DNA from: Escherichia coli
Lineage (GTDB): Bacteria > Pseudomonadota > Gammaproteobacteria > Enterobacterales > Enterobacteriaceae
Reading direction: 5' to 3' (one strand)
DNA: 64,000 nt
Assembly: GCF_003334765.1 (NCBI RefSeq)
Contig: NZ_QOWT01000003.1
The notes under the pieces: generated by a model
The model's database searches: none
What the model was told of the DNA's origin: nothing
The model's input: only the letters and a program-made list of their open reading frames with translations
Part shown: positions 1-16,179 of the stretch, piece by piece
Layout: each line of letters opens with the position of its first letter
How positions within the stretch are numbered: the stretch's first letter is position 1
Translations under genes and position numbers: made by a program

Positions 1-332
1 ATATCCCCCATAACCCTCTCCTTAGCTTATACAGATATCATTGAGTGACCGGTGTTGAGAAATCCGGTGGTTTAGGGGGATAGAGCAACAATCGCACCAC
101 TCTTGCCAGGTTTGGCGGGAAATATAAAAAAATGTGAGGCGGCTCGAAACTTAAGGGCTTTTTGTGAATGAACTCACAGGTGCTAAATGAGAATTAAAAT
201 CACTCCTGAAAATTATTATTGCCAGCCCATTTATCAATTTTTCTCTTTTCTCAAAATCAGTGATTCCTTATCATTATGATAATGAGTGCCGGAAGGATTA
301 AATATTTGAACGCAATCGTTTAACTACGTTTT

Positions 333-1013: not shown

Positions 1014-1784
1014 GTGAAAAGTATAGTTGACCCATCGGCATTAGTCATTGATTTAGGTGCGCAGAAACGTCCCACTGTGATTTCTGTTGTTGGTGCTGGG
1101 GGGAAAACCAGCTTGCTTTTTTGGCTGGCAGAACTGCTCCAGGCTAGCGGCAGGCGTGTGTTAATCACGACGACGACACATATGTTTATGCCAACGTCTC
1201 ACTGGCCCGTGGTTTTCTGTCGTGATCCCGCCATGCTTCCTCATGCGTCTCTTACATCCCCCATTTCATTTTGTTTTCACAGCTGGAAAGCGAACCAGGG
1301 AAAAGTGCAGGGATTTACGCCAGAAGCGATTGATGCACTGGTGCAACGACCAGAGTGTGACGTAATTCTCATTGAAGCAGATGGCTCGCGTGGAATGCCG
1401 TTAAAAGCGCCTGATGAGCACGAACCTTGCATACCCAAAAGCAGTTGCTGCGTGATTGCTGTGATGGGAGGACATACTTTGGGCGCGAAAGTGAGCACAG
1501 AAAATGTCCATCGCTGGTCGCAGTTTGCTGATATTACCGGGTTAACACCTGATGCAACCTTGCAACTGAGCGATCTCGTTGCGCTGGTTCGCCACCCTCA
1601 GGGGGCGTTTAAAAACGTACCGCAAGGTTGTCGGCGAGTCTGGTTCATTAACCGTTTTTCTCAATGTGAGAATGCGATTGCACAAAGCGAGCTCCTTCAA
1701 CCGCTGCAACAACACGACGTAGAGGCAATCTGGCTGGGCGATATACAAGAACATCCTGCAATCGCGCGCAGATTTGTGAATTAG
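1014..1784 (+). CDS. yqeC: selenium-dependent molybdenum hydroxylase system protein YqeC (P-loop protein)
   Basis: 256-aa ORF with Walker A-like motif VVGAGGKTS; synteny with yqeB/mocA as in E. coli K-12. Confidence 0.88.
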   Translation: MKSIVDPSALVIDLGAQKRPTVISVVGAGGKTSLLFWLAELLQASGRRVLITTTTHMFMPTSHWPVVFCRDPAMLPHASLTSPISFCFHSWKANQGKVQGFTPEAIDALVQRPECDVILIEADGSRGMPLKAPDEHEPCIPKSSCCVIAVMGGHTLGAKVSTENVHRWSQFADITGLTPDATLQLSDLVALVRHPQGAFKNVPQGCRRVWFINRFSQCENAIAQSELLQPLQQHDVEAIWLGDIQEHPAIARRFVN

Positions 1785-7364: not shown

Positions 7365-8561
7365 TTAAGGTGCTACAGCGTGTTTGCCTTCCCAGACAAC
7401 TTCGCGGTAGTGCTTCACGTCGGTGTCGCCTTCAGTGCTGATAACCAGCACCACGGCATCTTTGTTCAGCGCCAGTTTTTCCATCAGGCTTTGACGTTGC
7501 GGGTGATAATGAACCGCTGCGAGAACGCCCAAACCGACAGCGCCGGATTCACCGGAGATGATGCGCGGGTCGTTGCCGTACGGATTACCCAGCACGCGCA
7601 TACCTAATGCGGCAACGCTGTCCTGGCAGGAGATGAATTGGGTGGCGCAGTTACGTAGGATTTCCCAGCCCAGCGGGTTAGGTTCGCCACAGGCCAGGCC
7701 TGCCATGATGGTGGCCATATCACCGCCAACGTTGACGATGTCGCCTTTGACGCCGGAGCGATAAATACAGTCAGCTTTGTCAGGTTCAACAATAATGCTG
7801 TGCAGATTTTGCGGGCTATAGACGTCGACCAGATAACCCAGCACACCACCGGCCATTGCTCCGACACCGGCTTGCAGCAGAACGTGCGTCGGGGTTACGC
7901 CCATTTCACGCATTTGCTCGACGGCTTCATCTGCCAGGGTTGCGTAGCCTTGCATGATCCAGGTTGGGATTTTGGTGTAACCTTCCCATGCCGTGTCCTG
8001 TACCACTTCCCAGCCGTGCTGCTGCGCGTGTTGCATGGTCAGGCGAACGGTATCGTCATAGTTCATATCCGTGACGATGCACTCGGCACCGAGGTTCAGA
8101 ATGGCGTCAACGCGTTCCTGAGCAGAACCTTTCGGCATGTAAATCACCGCATTCTGTCCGAGTTGCTGTGCTGCCCACGCCACACCGCGCCCGTGGTTGC
8201 CGTCGGTGGTGGTCGCGAAAGTCATTTTTTCGCCGATGGCATTTTTCAGGTGCTCAAATGACAGCGTTTCGATATCAAGATGATATTTTTCACACAATAA
8301 TTGAGCGATGGCGTACGCACCGCCAAGCATTTTGAAGGCGTTCAGACCGAATCGTTTTGATTCGTCTTTGACGAGAATTTTCTTCACACCAAAAAGGTTT
8401 GCGAGATCGTCCAGCGCACAAAGCGGTGTTGGGCGATAACCAGCTATTTTCTGGTGGAACTGGCGCGCCAGTTTGGCCTGGCTTTGCGAAAAGAGCGGTG
8501 ATGTTTCGCCGTTGAAAAATTTGTTATCGGCGATATCAATCTTCAATGAGAAAACGGACAT
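7365..8561 (-). CDS. ygeX: 2,3-diaminopropionate ammonia-lyase (PLP-dependent) YgeX/DpaL
   Basis: 398-aa ORF; synteny and length match K-12 YgeX. Confidence 0.9.
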   Translation of the reverse strand: MSVFSLKIDIADNKFFNGETSPLFSQSQAKLARQFHQKIAGYRPTPLCALDDLANLFGVKKILVKDESKRFGLNAFKMLGGAYAIAQLLCEKYHLDIETLSFEHLKNAIGEKMTFATTTDGNHGRGVAWAAQQLGQNAVIYMPKGSAQERVDAILNLGAECIVTDMNYDDTVRLTMQHAQQHGWEVVQDTAWEGYTKIPTWIMQGYATLADEAVEQMREMGVTPTHVLLQAGVGAMAGGVLGYLVDVYSPQNLHSIIVEPDKADCIYRSGVKGDIVNVGGDMATIMAGLACGEPNPLGWEILRNCATQFISCQDSVAALGMRVLGNPYGNDPRIISGESGAVGLGVLAAVHYHPQRQSLMEKLALNKDAVVLVISTEGDTDVKHYREVVWEGKHAVAP

Positions 8562-8618
8562 ATCCTATCCTTTTGGCCTCTGGAAATAGAGGGCCGACCA
8601 GCTGATCGGCCCGAGGGG

Positions 8619-9809
8619 TTATTTCACGCGTTCTTGCGCTTCTTTCAGCAGTTGCTCGAGCAGTGCACCTGGTTTGGCGTATTTACGGGACAGGATCATC
8701 GCGGCGATGATATAAGGCTTCCAGCTGGCTTCTTTGTAGGTAGCGATACGGTATTTTTCGAATACGCCTTCAGTCACTTCACCTTCTTTACAGGATACGC
8801 CGCTGATATCAGCTGGCAGGCAGTGCATGTACAGGGCTTCGCCATCACGGGTCAGTTCCATCATCTCTTCAGTACAATGCCAGTCTTTGTGTTGCGCGTT
8901 CTGTGCCAGACACTGTTTTTCCAGTGCTTTTAAGCCTTCGTGATCGTTCGCACGCAGCAATTCAGTACGCTCTTCCATCACTTTGTAAGGTGCCCATGAC
9001 TTCGGATAAACGATGTCTGCGTCTTTGAAGGCTTCTTCCATGCTGGTGACCTGACGGAAGCTACCACCGGAGGCTTTAGCATTGTTTTTCGCCACTTCAA
9101 CCACATCCGGGATCAGGTCGTAGCCTTCCGGATGGGCCAGGGTGACATCCATACCGAAGCGAGTCATCAGACCGATGATGCCTTGTGGTACAGAGAGCGG
9201 TTTGCCATAGCTTGGAGAGTAGGCCCAGGTCATGGCGATTTTTTTACCTTTCAGGTTTTCCAGTGAACCAAAGTGTTCACGTAACCACGCGAGGTCAGCC
9301 ATTGACTGAGTCGGGTGGTCAATATCGCATTGCAGGTTCACTAAAGCCGGACGCTGTGGCAGTACACCCTGCTTGTAACCGTCATCAAGTGCAGCGCCAA
9401 CTTCACGCATATAGGCGTTGCCTGCGCCCAGATACATATCGTCGCGAATACCAATAGCGTCGGCGCAGAAGGAGATCATATTGGCGGTTTCACGCACGGT
9501 TTCGCCGTGAGCGATTTGTGATTTGCCTTCGTCGAGATCTTGTTGTGCAAGGCCGAGCAGGTTAAGCGCGGAAGCATAAGAGAAGCGGGTACGGGTGGAG
9601 TTGTCGCGGAATACGGAAATACCTAATCCACTATTAAAGACTTTGGTTGAGATGTTTTCAGCACGCAGTGCTTTTAATGCTGCGGCAACGTCCAGTACTT
9701 GTTTCAGTTCATCTGGCGTCTGTTCCCACGTTAACAAAAAATCTTTCTCGTGAAGGTGAGAGGTCAGCGAATTGATATCCTTAATCAGCTCATTAACAGT
9801 TTTCATCAT
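8619..9809 (-). CDS. ygeW: YgeW, transcarbamylase-family protein of uncertain substrate
   Basis: 396-aa ORF; aspartate/ornithine carbamoyltransferase fold family by sequence pattern; first gene of a co-directional five-gene cluster. Confidence 0.9.
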   Translation of the reverse strand: MMKTVNELIKDINSLTSHLHEKDFLLTWEQTPDELKQVLDVAAALKALRAENISTKVFNSGLGISVFRDNSTRTRFSYASALNLLGLAQQDLDEGKSQIAHGETVRETANMISFCADAIGIRDDMYLGAGNAYMREVGAALDDGYKQGVLPQRPALVNLQCDIDHPTQSMADLAWLREHFGSLENLKGKKIAMTWAYSPSYGKPLSVPQGIIGLMTRFGMDVTLAHPEGYDLIPDVVEVAKNNAKASGGSFRQVTSMEEAFKDADIVYPKSWAPYKVMEERTELLRANDHEGLKALEKQCLAQNAQHKDWHCTEEMMELTRDGEALYMHCLPADISGVSCKEGEVTEGVFEKYRIATYKEASWKPYIIAAMILSRKYAKPGALLEQLLKEAQERVK

Positions 9810-10284
9810 AAAGTCCCGGTAGTGGAATGACAGGCAAAGTGGTTTATTTCACTGTGACTTGCCAAAGTGATTGGTGTTTTCACAGCTATACCTGGGACTA
9901 ACAATAAGTGTGCCAGAATTATCCGCGCGGCTGCAAAAGACTAATTTGACGGATAATGTGTGGGGTTGATCACAAATTGATGCCAGCTTCTGGTTGTTTG
10001 TAAAATACGAAAACGTTTGGCTTTTTTTATCGCGTTATTTATTTGCTGCTAAGTATCAGAAATAAGATAAAGGGGCAGGCTATCTCTCTTCAGTTTGATA
10101 AACTCACCGCCGTAATTCTCATATTGATATAGAAATGTGATATCTCTTCCATAATTTCATTAGAAAATGATAAAAATCTTATGTTTTTATCAAAGCCAAT
10201 TTCGCCTGAGTTAATATCATCATGATCTGTGAACCATCAACGTCTTCAATGATCGACTTTTAAGTAAGTCTGGAAGGTAAAGCT

Positions 10285-12063
10285 ATGGAGCTTGCTACTA
10301 CGCAGTCAGTATTGATGCAAATTCAACCGACAATTCAGCGTTTTGCCAGAATGCTTGCCAGCGTTTTGCAGCTTGAGGTTGAGATCGTTGATGAAAACTT
10401 GTGTCGCGTTGCCGGAACGGGCGCGTATGGGAAGTTTCTTGGTCGCCAGTTGAGCGGCAACTCACGCCTGCTCCGCCACGTCCTGGAAACGAAAACTGAA
10501 AAAGTTGTGACACAGTCTCGCTTCGATCCCCTTTGCGAAGGTTGCGATAGTAAAGAAAATTGCCGCGAAAAAGCATTTCTGGGTACGCCTGTCATTTTAC
10601 AGGATCGTTGTGTTGGGGTGATAAGTTTGATTGCCGTTACCCACGAGCAACAAGAGCATATCAGTGATAATTTACGCGAATTTTCTGATTATGTTCGCCA
10701 TATATCCACCATTTTTGTTTCGAAACTTCTGGAGGATCAGGGGCCAGGAGATAACATCAGTAAAATATTTGCGACCATGATCGATAATATGGATCAGGGC
10801 GTATTAGTTGTAGATGATGAAAATCGGGTTCAGTTTGTTAATCAGACTGCCTTAAAAACACTTGGTGTTGTGCAAAATAATATTATTGGGAAACCTATCC
10901 GTTTCAGACCATTAACATTTGAGAGTAATTTTACCCATGGACATATGCAGCATATTGTTTCATGGGACGATAAAAGTGAATTAATCATTGGTCAATTGCA
11001 TAACATTCAGGGCCGACAATTATTTTTAATGGCGTTTCACCAATCGCATACCAGTTTTTCTGTAGCAAATGCACCTGATGAACCGCATATTGAACAATTG
11101 GTTGGCGAGTGCCGTGTTATGCGGCAATTAAAACGACTCATTAGCCGTATTGCACCCAGCCCATCCAGCGTTATGGTGGTTGGTGAAAGCGGCACGGGTA
11201 AAGAAGTCGTCGCCCGTGCAATCCATAAGTTGAGCGGAAGACGGAATAAACCCTTTATTGCTATCAACTGTGCCGCGATTCCGGAGCAGCTTCTGGAGAG
11301 CGAACTGTTCGGTTATGTTAAAGGTGCATTTACTGGCGCTTCTGCCAACGGTAAAACAGGGTTGATTCAGGCGGCGAATACGGGCACGCTGTTTCTCGAT
11401 GAAATAGGTGATATGCCATTAATGTTGCAGGCTAAATTACTGCGCGCTATTGAGGCACGTGAAATTCTGCCGATTGGTGCCAGTAGCCCAATACAAGTCG
11501 ACATTCGCATCATTTCTGCAACTAATCAGAATTTGGCCCAGTTCATTGCCGAAGGTAAATTCCGCGAAGATCTCTTCTACCGACTTAATGTTATCCCGAT
11601 AACTCTGCCACCGCTGCGTGAACGTCAGGAAGATATTGAACTATTGGTGCATTACTTTTTACATCTGCATACCCGTCGTCTGGGATCGGTTTATCCTGGC
11701 ATTGCTCCCGATGTCGTCGAAATATTGCGTAAGCATCGTTGGCCCGGAAACCTGCGCGAGTTAAGCAATTTGATGGAATATCTGGTTAACGTGGTTCCTT
11801 CAGGTGAAGTTATCGACAGCACGCTATTGCCGCCAAATCTGCTGAATAATGGCACAACGGAGCAAAGTGATGTAACAGAGGTCAGTGAGGCGCACCTGTC
11901 ACTCGATGATGCGGGCGGCACGGCGCTGGAGGAGATGGAAAAGCAAATGATCCGCGAGGCGCTTTCACGTCATAACAGCAAGAAGCAAGTTGCTGATGAA
12001 CTGGGCATCGGCATTGCTACGCTCTATCGCAAGATTAAGAAATATGAGTTGTTAAACACATAA
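10285..12063 (+). CDS. ygeV: sigma54-dependent transcriptional activator YgeV
   Basis: 592-aa ORF; AAA+ sigma54-interaction domain (GESGTGKE Walker A, ESELFGY motif) and C-terminal HTH; N-terminal sensory domain. Confidence 0.93.
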   Translation: MELATTQSVLMQIQPTIQRFARMLASVLQLEVEIVDENLCRVAGTGAYGKFLGRQLSGNSRLLRHVLETKTEKVVTQSRFDPLCEGCDSKENCREKAFLGTPVILQDRCVGVISLIAVTHEQQEHISDNLREFSDYVRHISTIFVSKLLEDQGPGDNISKIFATMIDNMDQGVLVVDDENRVQFVNQTALKTLGVVQNNIIGKPIRFRPLTFESNFTHGHMQHIVSWDDKSELIIGQLHNIQGRQLFLMAFHQSHTSFSVANAPDEPHIEQLVGECRVMRQLKRLISRIAPSPSSVMVVGESGTGKEVVARAIHKLSGRRNKPFIAINCAAIPEQLLESELFGYVKGAFTGASANGKTGLIQAANTGTLFLDEIGDMPLMLQAKLLRAIEAREILPIGASSPIQVDIRIISATNQNLAQFIAEGKFREDLFYRLNVIPITLPPLRERQEDIELLVHYFLHLHTRRLGSVYPGIAPDVVEILRKHRWPGNLRELSNLMEYLVNVVPSGEVIDSTLLPPNLLNNGTTEQSDVTEVSEAHLSLDDAGGTALEEMEKQMIREALSRHNSKKQVADELGIGIATLYRKIKKYELLNT

Positions 12064-12073
12064 CCTCAGTGAA

Positions 12074-12104
12074 TCCGGCCTGAATTCAGGCCGGATATCC
12101 TTTT
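12074..12104. terminator. palindromic hairpin between convergent ygeV and xdhC (likely bidirectional terminator)
   Basis: Perfect inverted repeat tccggcctgaa/ttcaggccgga followed by tatcctttt on the plus strand; sits between the ygeV stop and xdhC stop. Confidence 0.55.
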
Positions 12105-12582
12105 ACTTCGTTTTCTCGCAATCCAGAACTGTATTTACAATCATCTGATACCCCGTGCAGCGACAAAGATTTCCCGCCAGTCCGCGACGAATTTCCGTAA
12201 TGGTTAATGGCTTCTCGCGTGGTTTCGCCAGCATTGCCGTGGTAGCCATAATCAGGCCAGGCGTACAAAACCCGCACTGCACTGCGCCGGATTTCGCATA
12301 AGCCTGCTGAACATGAGAAAGTTTTCCGCCTTTCGCTTCACCTTCCAGCGTGCGGATCTCTTTTCCTTCAGCCCAGGCGGCAAGGTATAAGCAACTGTCT
12401 ATTGCTGTGCCGTCGACCAACACCGTACAGGCACCACATTCACCCACGCAGCACCCTTGTTTGACACTTAGCAGTCCTTGTTCGCGGAGTAATTCCGAGA
12501 GCGGCGTGCCTGGTGCGGCGTGAAGCTGAAAAGGCATCCCGTTAATGGTGCATTCGATGGTAATTGTTTCGCTGTGATTCAT
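12103..12582 (-). CDS. xdhC: xanthine dehydrogenase iron-sulfur subunit
   Basis: 159-aa ORF with 2Fe-2S cysteine clusters ([16 protein letters not shown]); overlaps the xdhB stop by 4 nt. Confidence 0.93.
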
Positions 12583-13457
12583 TGCAATTTTCCCCCCGCC
12601 GCGGCGACGGCTTCGCTAATCACTTTTTTGGTCATCGTCTGGATGAGATGCAGACGAAACTCTTTACTGGCCCGCCATGAAGAACGCGGGGCGACATCTT
12701 GCAGGACAGATTCGCTGATAGCTTCCAGCGTTTGCAGGTTTAATGGCGCATTTTGTGCAGTCTGTTCGGCATGTTGGCAGCGAATCGGCGTTGGCGCGGC
12801 AACACCAAATGCCAGGCGTAATTCGCTGAAATTGCCGTTATCCAGTCGGCAATGTGCGGCGCAGCCAATCGTTGAAATATCCATTGCGTCGCGCATGGCA
12901 TATTTAAAATGCGCGCTGCCCGCGTGTTCTTTCGGCTGTGGCGGAAAATGAAAGGCGACGAGGATTTCGTCATGCTCAAGAGACACTTTGCCCGGCCCGG
13001 TGTGAAAGCCATTAATCGGGACGAAACGAACACCGCGCGGGGAGTGGATCTCCAGTTTCGCGTCATAAATTAGCGTTGGCGTGGCAGAATCTGCGCTGGT
13101 GGCACCGTTGCAAATATTTCCACCGTAGGTAGCGACGTTACGGATCTGCGGTCCAGCAATGGACGTGGCCGCAGCACATAACGCCGGGAGATGACGTTGA
13201 GTTATAGGATCTTCTATTAGCTGGGTAAATGTCGTTGCAGAGCCGATACGTAGCGAGCCATCTTCCGCCAGCGTAATTCCCCGCAGCTCCGCCAGATTAT
13301 GAATATCAACAATATGGCGATAACGGTCATTGTGATGGTGGAGCTGAATCAGTACGTCAGTGCCACCGGCGAGCAGTTTGGCCTGCGGGTTGTCAGCCAG
13401 CAGGTTGATGGCATCGGCAAGGGTTGCTGCGCGATGGTAAGAAGCAAAATCAAACAT
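12579..13457 (-). CDS. xdhB: xanthine dehydrogenase FAD-binding subunit
   Basis: 292-aa ORF; synteny xdhA-xdhB-xdhC. Confidence 0.93.
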
Positions 13458-13467
13458 GATGTTATCC

Positions 13468-15726
13468 TCAAATCAATCCTGCCAGATGGAACTCTTCATA
13501 TAACCGTTTTGGCGTCAGCGGCAGTGTATTGATTGCAACACCGGTAGCCATCTTCACCGCGTTACGAATAGCAGCGGCAACAGGAATTATTGGTGGCTCA
13601 CCCAGTGACTTATGTCCGTATGCGGATTGCGGCTCATTGATTTCGACGAACGCGCTTTCCAGTTGTGGCAGATCCGGCATGGTCGGCATTTTGTAATCCA
13701 GCAGATTGGGGTTACGGACCACGCCGCTTTTAGCATCGATGATCATCTCTTCAAATAGCGCCCAGCCAATGCCCATTCCCATTCCGCCGTGTACCTGACC
13801 TTCTGCCAGCAGTGGATTAAGAATATGCCCTGAATCATGAACGTTGAGGATGCGGTTGATGGTGACTTTGCACAGCGCAATATCGACCGTCAGATCAACA
13901 AAGGTACAGCCAAACGCCGGTGGGTTAGTGGTGGTTTTGATGGAGCTTTCAGCAGAGAGCTGCCCGCCGCGTTCAGGGTGGTAGAAAGCGTCCATCGCCA
14001 AATCTTTTAACGACATTAACGGCTCTTCCGGTCGTTCAACCAGCACGATATGGCCTTTTATCAGGGTCAGATTCATCGCTGACTGATGTAGCATGACTGC
14101 GGCGTGAGCGATGATTTTCTCTTTTAATAATAGTGCCGCACTGCGCAGCGCAGGCGCGGCAACATAGCTCTGGCGTGAGGCAAATGCGCCGGGATCGAAC
14201 GGCGTAACGTCGGTATCTTGAGTTGAAATAACGCGAACGTCGCTGACCGGAACCCCCACGGTTTCTGCCACCATTTGCGAGAAGACGGTGTCGGCACCCT
14301 GACCGATTTCCGTCGCGCCGCTTTGCACGTTGATGGTTCCATCCTGATTCATCAGAAGGCGCGCGCCTGCTATTTCTACGCCGACAGGCCAGGTGTTAGA
14401 GGTGTAGCTAAAACAGGCGACGCCAACGCCGCGGCGCAAATTGCCTTGCTGGTTCTGGCATTCTGCACGGCGTTTTTCCCATTCAAAGATTTTCCGGCCT
14501 TTTTCAAGACACTCCGGCAACCCTGCGCTGTAAATACGTTTGCCCGTGAGCGGATTAGCATCTCCTTCGCGGGCGGCGTTGCGTAAACGAATTTCAACAG
14601 GATCAATACCTAACGCTGTCGCGGCGTCATCAAGCATAGACTCAACGGCAAATACGACTTGTGGCGCGCCATAACCACGCATCGCACCAGCCGAGGGGAG
14701 GTTGGTATAGCAGGTCTTTGAACTGTAAGCGTAGGCACAACGAGGATAAAGGTAAGCGACTTTATTCCCCCCCGCAGAAGCGATGGAGTGCCCGTGAGAT
14801 GCATAAGCGCCGGTGTTAGACAGAACATCCAGACTATAACCTTTCAATGTTCCGTCGCGGTTCACGCCCATTTGCCCGTCAATGGTAAAAGCGTGGCGGG
14901 TACGGGTTGCGAGGAAACACTCTTCACGGCTAAGGGAAACTTTCACCGGAATGCCGCCAAGCTTGCTGGTCAGGAATGCCGCCATTGGCTCTTCCAGTAC
15001 ATCCTGTTTATTACCAAAACCGCCACCGACAAATGGTTTGATGACTCGTACGCATGACCAGGGAATATCCAGCGCCTGACCAACCACGCGGCGAACAATG
15101 TGCGGGATCTGGGTGCTGGAAACGATGGTAATTCGCGAGTCATCCTCCATCCACGCCAGCGATGTTACGCTTTCCATGTGACAATGTTGAATAACGGGGG
15201 TCTGATAGTGCCCCTGTACCTGGTAGTCGGCGGCATCGATTGTTTGTTGGACATTACCCGTCGACATCGTGCTTTGTTTCAGTAAATTGCCACCGTTATG
15301 GATTGGTGCAGCGTCTTCTGCCAGCGCCGCTTCTGGCGTGGTGATAACGGGTAATTCTTGCCACTCAATGCTGACCAATTGCGCCGCTTTTTCTGCCGTG
15401 AGTTCATCGCGGGCCACGACGATGGCAACGGCGTCACCATGATGACGAACATGGCGAGTTAGCAGTGCGCGATCGGCGGTATCGCGCTTGTTTTCGTCAA
15501 GTGTCCAGGCATGCCCAGCTGTAGCGAATGGAATATCAGGCACATCTTCCCAGGTAAAAATCGCCAGTACGCCCGGCAAACTTCTGGCTTGTTCATCATT
15601 AATACTTACGGCATAACCATGTGCGATAGGGCTACGTACATATTTCGCATAACACATGCCCGCCATAACATAATCGTCAGTATATCGTGCCCGCCCGGTG
15701 ACCTTAGCAATGGCATCGACGCGCAT
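13468..15726 (-). CDS. xdhA: xanthine dehydrogenase molybdenum-binding subunit
   Basis: ORF track extends to 15765, but the internal ATG giving MRVDAIAKVTG yields the 752-aa length recalled for XdhA. Confidence 0.92.
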   Translation of the reverse strand: MRVDAIAKVTGRARYTDDYVMAGMCYAKYVRSPIAHGYAVSINDEQARSLPGVLAIFTWEDVPDIPFATAGHAWTLDENKRDTADRALLTRHVRHHGDAVAIVVARDELTAEKAAQLVSIEWQELPVITTPEAALAEDAAPIHNGGNLLKQSTMSTGNVQQTIDAADYQVQGHYQTPVIQHCHMESVTSLAWMEDDSRITIVSSTQIPHIVRRVVGQALDIPWSCVRVIKPFVGGGFGNKQDVLEEPMAAFLTSKLGGIPVKVSLSREECFLATRTRHAFTIDGQMGVNRDGTLKGYSLDVLSNTGAYASHGHSIASAGGNKVAYLYPRCAYAYSSKTCYTNLPSAGAMRGYGAPQVVFAVESMLDDAATALGIDPVEIRLRNAAREGDANPLTGKRIYSAGLPECLEKGRKIFEWEKRRAECQNQQGNLRRGVGVACFSYTSNTWPVGVEIAGARLLMNQDGTINVQSGATEIGQGADTVFSQMVAETVGVPVSDVRVISTQDTDVTPFDPGAFASRQSYVAAPALRSAALLLKEKIIAHAAVMLHQSAMNLTLIKGHIVLVERPEEPLMSLKDLAMDAFYHPERGGQLSAESSIKTTTNPPAFGCTFVDLTVDIALCKVTINRILNVHDSGHILNPLLAEGQVHGGMGMGIGWALFEEMIIDAKSGVVRNPNLLDYKMPTMPDLPQLESAFVEINEPQSAYGHKSLGEPPIIPVAAAIRNAVKMATGVAINTLPLTPKRLYEEFHLAGLI

Positions 15727-15820
15727 GCATGATTCACCCGTAGCGGTTGCTTCCCGCGCTTCCATAGAAATCCCCTCGATTTGAACATTTGGTTCTTATG
15801 GCAAAGATTTAGTCTAAGCA

Positions 15821-15837
15821 GGCAAGATTTACGCCAG
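15821..15837 (-). promoter_or_regulatory. candidate sigma54 (-24/-12) promoter for xdhABC
   Basis: Minus strand reads cTGGCGTaaatcTTGCc: GG and GC separated by 10 nt as in the TGGCAC-N5-TTGC consensus; about 95 nt upstream of the xdhA start; ygeV (sigma54 activator) is adjacent. Confidence 0.5.
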
Positions 15838-16179
15838 AAACGACGATAAGCGTTAGGGGAGGTAGGAAGTGTGATGACGTTAAAAAAACACAGATATGAT
15901 ACGAAACAGGACTCTGAATAGGGGCAGTGATACGTATCAATATGAGTGGCGATAAAATCAATGTGATAAATTGGGATTATTACGCATCAGGATGGGAAAT
16001 AGGGTAAAAAGTCAGGAAGTTCGATACCTCTACAGCGAATATTTTGCTGATGATACTTCCCTTTGCCAAATGAAATTAACCTCTTTCTCTATTACCACGT
16101 TTTTCCAGAAGCAAGAGATTGGGTATCAAGAGGCTGGCTGCTATGATAAGGCGTCTTGTTTTTTAAGCGAGGAAAGATT

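Follow-up and report, generated by a model that had tools for sequence, protein, structure and literature searches.

RNA polymerase carrying σ54 forms a closed complex that has no intrinsic ability to start transcription, and it needs an upstream-bound AAA+ activator, DNA looping and ATP hydrolysis. At the classical promoters of this kind (glnAp2 with NtrC, hyc/hyp with FhlA and pspA with PspF), as at xdhA, a -24/-12 element is occupied by the closed complex before activation. The activator sites of the classical systems lie 100–200 bp upstream and are often paired about two helical turns apart, an arrangement to which the region upstream of xdhA can be likened.

The closest described object is the xdhA promoter of Escherichia coli itself. 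Zhao 2010 (PMC2831329) assigned to xdhA (b2866) the promoter tttcTGGCGTAAATCTTGCCTGctta, the same sequence as the element analyzed here, and reported that xdhA expression increased 4.9-fold upon σ54 induction and decreased 2.1-fold in an rpoN mutant. Bonocora 2015 (PMC4591121) located a σ54 ChIP-seq peak, OS29, on exactly CTGGCGTAAATCTTGCC (fold-above-threshold of 11), marked the promoter with a ‘C’, i.e. experimentally confirmed in EcoCyc, and placed the predicted start 84 nt upstream of the K-12 start codon of xdhA; further σ54 sites were assigned at ygeW, ygfK, ygfT and within yqeC. The same study considered most of the new promoters in the Zhao microarray list to be false positives, xdhA being among five that were confirmed, and pointed out that σ54 binding sites need not be productive promoters. 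The σ54 promoter of xdhABC is, both as an observation and in its interpretation, already in the literature and not new.

With regard to the activator, the PRECISE-1K paper (PMC10602906) describes a ‘YgeV iModulon’ that includes xdhABC and ygeWXY. The portion of that paper dealing with YgeV credits the σ54 promoters located upstream of the operons xdhABC and ygeWXY to Reitzer and Schneider 2001, and cites a lowered ygfT expression in a ygeV mutant. Published reports also state that ygeV is needed for anaerobic uric acid consumption, and that uric acid acts as an inducer of ygfK and ygfT. The published effects of YgeV thus concern ygfT expression and uric acid consumption, and the grouping of xdhABC and ygeWXY as a YgeV/RpoN unit is the current published hypothesis, in the form of the YgeV iModulon. 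Neither a direct action of YgeV at xdhA nor an account of where YgeV binds in E. coli was found in the literature searched. In clostridia, Nie 2019 (PMC6615313) predicted a DioR regulon comprising dpaL, ygeW-ygfK-ssnA-ygeY, yqeC-ygfJ-yqeB-xdhC and hyp-xdhABC; the function of DioR was given there as unknown, and the protein was still termed uncharacterised in 2024.

The window, that is, the whole stretch of 64,000 nucleotides (64 kb) analyzed here, is E. coli chromosomal DNA in reverse orientation relative to K-12. Around the flagged element, the DNA matches many E. coli chromosomes at 100% identity, and 5412 of the 5426 complete genomes have the region. According to the RefSeq annotation of an identical strain, the gene order is actS (ygeR) / xdhA-xdhB-xdhC / ygeV / ygeW-dpaL (ygeX)-ygeY-hyuA-arcC. 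In both the open reading frame list and RefSeq, xdhA (13468-15765; 765 aa with the RefSeq start), xdhB (12579-13457) and xdhC (12103-12582) lie on the minus strand, with a gap of 10 nt between xdhA and xdhB and an overlap of 4 nt between xdhB and xdhC; the two latter genes, close-packed behind xdhA (12103-13457), form a single operon with it. The gene of the σ54 enhancer-binding protein, ygeV (10285-12063, plus strand), is divergent from ygeW (8619-9809, minus strand, from the open reading frame list) and convergent with xdhC. The sequence-only reading had placed ygeV immediately downstream of xdhC, which is borne out by a gap of only 40 nt, but the two genes converge and a hairpin with a 10-bp stem, ATCCGGCCTG-AATT-CAGGCCGGAT (12073-12096), stands between them. 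The whole palindrome reads ATCCGGCCTGaattCAGGCCGGAT, its 10-bp stem being perfect, and the hairpin is probably a shared bidirectional terminator of xdhC and ygeV.

Two starts are annotated for xdhA, namely the K-12 ATG at 15726 (752 aa) and the RefSeq/PGAP ATG at 15765 (765 aa). A ribosome-binding site, GAGGGGA (15771-15777), precedes the latter and, together with the start region and the 13 extra N-terminal codons, it is kept in L156, a metagenomic locus whose XdhA orthologue is 80% identical. Because of this ribosome-binding site and the conservation of the added codons, the longer version is probably genuine and 15765 is probably the true start. The distance from the end of the σ54 motif to xdhA depends on this choice: the figure of about 95 nt given earlier holds for the K-12 start, but it becomes 56 nt for the RefSeq start. 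In this annotation alone does the locus differ from the catalogued E. coli promoter (EcoCyc; Zhao 2010; OS29), in which the 17-mer, its position and its orientation are all the same and which is hence the same object.

On the minus strand, positions 15821-15837 read cTGGCGTaaatcTTGCc, with GG at 15835-15834 and GC at 15823-15822. The claim that both dinucleotides stand in the σ54 consensus spacing is confirmed by this direct reading of GG-N10-GC. The element, which can be split as TGGCGT-AAATC-TTGCC, lies upstream of xdhA and has the same orientation. To call it near-consensus was generous: the spacing agrees, but TGGCGT departs from TGGCAC and TTGCC from TTGCA/T, and the site falls in the lower third of real sites. 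A σ54 position weight matrix (PWM) trained on 46 intergenic ChIP-seq sites of Bonocora 2015, from which the sites of this gene cluster were left out, scored it at 14.3 bits, a value exceeding just 26% of the training sites. Further, the TGGC-N7-TTGC core occurs six times in the window vs. 4.0 expected, and dinucleotide shuffles of the window gave a mean of 1.7 matches scoring at least as high as the xdhA element. By itself, the xdhA motif is not rarer than would be expected by chance in a sequence of 64 kb.

When the PWM scan that had been proposed along with the sequence-only reading was run, the xdhA site came out as the second best in the window. The top two of the 128,000 scanned positions were the ygeW site (15.7 bits) and the xdhA site, both of them intergenic and in sense orientation into their operons, on either side of ygeV. 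Because the two best PWM sites are intergenic, sense-oriented and flank the gene of a σ54 activator, the context of the xdhA element is not that of a chance match. The chance of such a match in the strand-specific window of approximately 150 nt before xdhA, obtained by arithmetic from the shuffle rate, is about 0.002; placement and conservation of the element (the latter described below) are beyond chance. By the rule of Bonocora 2015, in which the motif centre (here 15829) is followed by the start 19 nt further downstream, transcription is predicted to begin at 15810 on the minus strand; the leader would then measure approximately 45 nt with the ATG at 15765 and 84 nt with the K-12 start, 15726, the second value being in agreement with the ‘distance 84’ of that study.

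To follow the element beyond this chromosome, we compared five E. coli strains, in which the spacer diverged by up to 4.4%, and searched metagenomes with an XdhA peptide as anchor, leaving out the E. coli codon to keep E. coli from saturating the results. The TGGCGTA..TCTTGCC core was unchanged in the five strains, the sole change within the element being an A-to-T substitution in the non-critical spacer. The metagenome scan returned xdhABC loci of graded similarity. In L156, the element was kept as TTGGCGTAGTTCTTGCC and its TGGCGTA..TCTTGCC core was invariant despite the diverged flanks, most of the spacer aligning poorly with that of E. coli. Wherever the upstream DNA could be read, a -24/-12 element is present 42–67 nt before the start for every XdhA orthologue with 66% identity or more (the L156, L135/L122, L194/L104 and L163 groups), while no such element was found at that position for the orthologues of 57% identity or less from the same scan.

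In line with these results, the σ54 promoter call upstream of xdhA matches both the published rpoN-dependent expression (PMC2831329) and the σ54 occupancy observed by ChIP-seq (PMC4591121). Taking direct reading, PWM and ChIP-seq match together, we hold with high confidence that 15821-15837 is a functional σ54 promoter of xdhABC.

A second stretch of the spacer, TTTTTTTAACGTCATCACA (15870-15888, minus strand; -78 to -60), located between the candidate activator boxes described below and the promoter, differs hardly at all between E. coli and L156, whereas the adjacent DNA diverges. It is possibly a site for bending or for an accessory protein. The exact consensus for IHF, WATCAANNNNTTR, was sought between the xdhA boxes and the promoter, this block included, and was not found there, in which respect xdhA differs from the classical systems.

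In some E. coli strains (H1-H3; locus L206), the actS-xdhA spacer carries an IS1 insertion with a 9-bp target duplication, GAGGTATCG (16022-16030), roughly between -212 and -220 relative to the predicted start of xdhA. As this lies just upstream of both candidate boxes, the predicted xdhA promoter and enhancer are left intact.

Concerning the regulator, a Pfam scan of YgeV found a PAS domain (162-201), a σ54 AAA+ domain (Sigma54_activat, 272-439), a lid domain and a helix-turn-helix (HTH) domain of the Fis type (HTH_8, 548-587), and no receiver domain. The label ‘orphan response regulator’ is thus a loose one, and with respect to the classical systems xdhA would stand apart in having an activator with a PAS sensor region and without a receiver. 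With this architecture, YgeV is probably ligand-controlled rather than phosphorylated.

A homologous-protein search with YgeV returned 120 near-identical E. coli clusters, other genera being absent among the matches listed. In a genome contig scan, which was dominated by the generic AAA+ peptide FLDEIGDM, the matches listed comprised distant full-length homologues (34–38% identity) and no close orthologues; their hosts were Sedimentibacter, Clostridium thailandense, Terrisporobacter, Desulfosporosinus and Citrobacter werkmanii (L002). The genes of these homologues adjoin ygeX/ygeW/ygeY or xdhC/xdhA, and beside each of them lies a σ54 PWM match of 14–20 bits, which ranked first in most loci and third in C. 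werkmanii. The Sedimentibacter regulator, encoded beside ygeX-ygeW-ygeY, is 36% identical to YgeV over YgeV residues 10-585 (E = 4e-129) and has the same HTH segment, LGIGIATLYRK. At the level of protein sequence, YgeV is a full-length homologue of regulators whose loci match the clostridial DioR group, the comparison having been made with metagenome and genome homologues and not with the exact DioR proteins of PMC6615313.

Upstream of the σ54 sites in the Firmicute loci, we found tandem palindromes of the form TTATCA-N3(4)-TGATAA, the same as the published DioR sites. With two mismatches or fewer, the DioR consensus occurs 18 times in the window vs. 4.2 expected; such boxes are found upstream of ygfK (perfect), ygeW (two) and xdhA (15955-15969), and inside yqeC. 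Another 29 kb of the cluster contains the consensus three times, each beside a ChIP σ54 site. A DioR PWM was then built from the 19 published clostridial sites only, and 88 kb of E. coli DNA were scanned with it. The top four matches each lay 180–242 bp from a ChIP-seq σ54 site, such neighbourhoods making up approximately 3% of the sequence, and were located at ygfK (23.0 bits), in the ygfT-uacT spacer (16.4 bits), at ygeW (16.4 bits) and inside yqeC, before yqeB (15.8 bits). An enrichment of TGATA/TATCA pentamers was treated as a lead only, because AT-rich intergenic DNA inflates such counts, and was superseded by the clostridial-site PWM and local shuffles.

At ygfK, the σ54 promoter GTGGTGCGATTGTTGCT (84-100, minus strand; PWM 11.9 bits; ChIP-seq site OS31) is accompanied by the box TTATCATAATGATAA (268-282), an exact match to the DioR consensus situated 202 nt before the start predicted for ygfK. 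The region of this box, cATTATCATAATGATAAGG, is identical in 17 of 19 bases to the C. botulinum ygeW site ATTTATCATAATGATAAGG (CBO2885, PMC6615313), which suggests either strong constraint or that the cluster was transferred horizontally along with its control sites. The ygfK promoter region contains two overlapping σ54-like motifs offset by 9 nt on the minus strand, GTGGTGCGATTGTTGCT and CTGGCAAGAGTGGTGCG (93-109), and the -24/-12 element has been assigned to the former by Bonocora 2015 and to the latter by Zhao 2010.

The σ54 promoter of ygeW-ygeX(dpaL)-ygeY, CTGGCACACTTATTGTT (9900-9916, minus strand; 15.7 bits; ChIP-seq site OS30), is preceded by two DioR-type boxes, one at 10116-10130 (ATATCAATATGAGAA, -234) and the other at 10087-10101 (-205), with a local shuffle frequency of 0.003 for the ygeW box. 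The ygeV-ygeW spacer also holds a CRP-like dyad, TGTGATCAACCCCACA (approximately 9945-9975, minus strand), about 50–65 nt upstream of the ygeW -24 element, which fits the ‘native Crp-binding site’ and the glucose repression described in PMC12507026. Inside yqeC, the σ54 site TGAGCACGAACCTTGCA (1415-1431, plus strand; ChIP-seq site IS34), which drives yqeB, has its DioR-type box TTCTCACATTGAGAA (1658-1672) approximately 223 nt downstream of the predicted start. This sole box lies in the leader before yqeB, an unusual position for an enhancer; in C. difficile, the SigL promoter is located before yqeB and not before yqeC. Together, the predicted enhancer map would comprise sites at -152/-131 for xdhA, -234/-205 for ygeW, -202 for ygfK, -199 for ygfT/uacT and +223 for yqeB.

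At xdhA itself, the best DioR-PWM match of the upstream region is a distal candidate YgeV box, TTATCACATTGATTT (15955-15969, minus strand; centre at -152), with two mismatches to TTATCANNNTGATAA and a score of 7.1 bits, a value reached by 11% of local shuffles. A proximal candidate, CACTCATATTGATAC (GTATCAATATGAGTG on the plus strand; 15934-15948, minus strand), has its centre at -131, at a distance of 21 bp from that of the distal one, and scored -0.3 bits with the clostridial PWM. Within the 64 kb there are exactly two copies of its 12-mer TATCAATATGAG (plus strand), one upstream of xdhA and one upstream of ygeW, and the 12-mer recurs in the box of the ygfT-uacT spacer. Both boxes are unchanged among the E. 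coli strains, and their counterparts in L156 (CTATCATAATGAGTT and GGCTCATTATGATAC) are found at -153/-132 vs. -152/-131 in E. coli, the surrounding spacer having diverged. The other σ54-type xdhA promoters examined are all preceded by stronger boxes with a spacing of 20–23 bp: in L194/L104 a perfect TTATCAATATGATAA is accompanied by a second box, and there are three boxes in L135 and two in L163. For the upstream activator site that the sequence-only reading could not locate by eye, these two boxes, the proximal one with the 12-mer shared with ygeW, are candidates, although at xdhA the sites are degenerate.

We rejected the perfect palindrome TGATACGTATCA (15928-15939) as an activator site, since its right half is not conserved in L156 whereas CTCA-N3-TGATAC is. 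It follows from the L156 alignment that this palindrome consists of the right half of the proximal box and an adjacent, non-conserved TATCA.

In L156, a gene for a 453-aa σ54 activator (7727-9088) ends directly upstream of xdhA, and both boxes follow its stop codon. The similarity of this protein to YgeV (37% over 294 aa) is confined to the AAA+ and HTH regions; as the upstream activator of L156 differs from YgeV, recognition of the boxes does not have to fall to a YgeV orthologue in all species. In L156, either similar boxes are recognized by a second family of regulators, or a ygeV orthologue is located outside the stretch analyzed.

Comparison with the clostridial DioR regulon (PMC6615313) showed the same gene content as in the E. 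coli cluster and a regulator architecture that matches that of the YgeV-like loci, with full-length homology. In both, a box of the form TTATCA-N3-TGATAA lies 130–240 bp from the σ54 sites, and a TGAGA half-site variant is common to C. difficile and E. coli. Unlike the DioR regulon, the E. coli genes are distributed over several divergent and convergent operons along approximately 31 kb, the xdhA boxes are degenerate, and the box of yqeB is located on the downstream side of the promoter; the clostridial DioR sites, of which the C. botulinum ygeW site is an example, are themselves computational predictions. On balance, these parallels in sequence and arrangement lead us to favour, with some reserve, the view that YgeV is the enterobacterial DioR orthologue and reads the same box, TTATCA-N3-TGA(T/G)AA.

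Other explanations of the element were weighed against the σ54 promoter activated by YgeV. That it is a functionless chance match is hardly credible: about 1.7 equal or better PWM matches are expected in the window and the core pattern is found six times where four are expected, which would allow for such a match, yet the element has the correct place and orientation, it is conserved across XdhA orthologues, and xdhA expression depends on rpoN (PMC2831329). Moreover, the in vivo σ54 occupancy (PMC4591121) excludes chance unless the ChIP-seq peak were irreproducible. It is also improbable, if less so, that σ54 binds here with little consequence while xdhABC is transcribed mainly from an upstream σ70 promoter. 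Binding sites are not always productive promoters (Bonocora 2015, PMC4591121), and one match to a σ70 promoter, TTGGCA-17-CAAAAT, was found at 16069-16041. However, this sole match is at chance level (1 found vs. 0.8 expected), for which reason a σ70 promoter was rejected as the main driver of xdhABC; in addition, xdhA expression tracks rpoN (PMC2831329), and the -24/-12 core and upstream boxes are conserved where the neighbouring DNA is not.

Somewhat less remote, though still unlikely, is a genuine σ54 promoter of xdhABC that responds to an activator other than YgeV, for example to NtrC under nitrogen limitation, or to several activators. This would account for the response of xdhA to the level of σ54 in ordinary medium lacking a purine inducer (PMC2831329), for the different activator gene directly upstream of xdhA in L156 and for the poor match of the xdhA boxes to the DioR PWM. 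As for NtrC, genomic SELEX places a site inside the operon, between xdhB and xdhC, but this is approximately 3 kb downstream of the promoter rather than upstream of it. The co-variation of xdhABC with the YgeV iModulon (PMC10602906), the exact 12-mer common to the xdhA upstream region and the ygeW and ygfT enhancers, and the strong DioR-type boxes at orthologous xdhA promoters all speak against a different activator.

In the activation by YgeV that we prefer, σ54 RNA polymerase sits on the -24 GG / -12 GC element as a closed complex, as the occupancy in the published ChIP-seq data shows, and transcription would start at approximately 15810 only once an AAA+ enhancer-binding protein, bound 130–150 bp upstream, loops to the polymerase and hydrolyses ATP. 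The most likely activator would be YgeV, acting through the quasi-palindromic TATCA-N3-TGA(T/G)A boxes at 15955-15969 and 15934-15948, and it may respond to a purine-related signal via its N-terminal/PAS region. Under the same control, xdhABC, ygeWXY, ygfK-ssnA-ygfM-xdhD, ygfT and yqeB would constitute one purine/uric-acid regulon, corresponding in E. coli to the DioR regulon of clostridia. We consider this full model, with a σ54 promoter of xdhABC activated by YgeV through two boxes, to be likely, a judgement which already allows for a different activator being responsible.

The xdhABC promoter itself is of a textbook type and is catalogued in EcoCyc and in two genome-wide σ54 studies, and the value added here lies in the link between YgeV and the DioR motif and in the resulting enhancer map, a directly testable prediction. 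The genes of the regulon serve gut bacteria in degrading purines and uric acid anaerobically; their overexpression in engineered E. coli Nissle strains is being pursued as a gout therapy, and their regulation ‘remains poorly understood’, according to one paper. A concrete set of YgeV sites would permit verification of the regulon, identification of the inducing ligand and rewiring of these genes without swapping whole intergenic regions. If YgeV is indeed DioR, this architecture of boxes plus promoter would be conserved across phyla.
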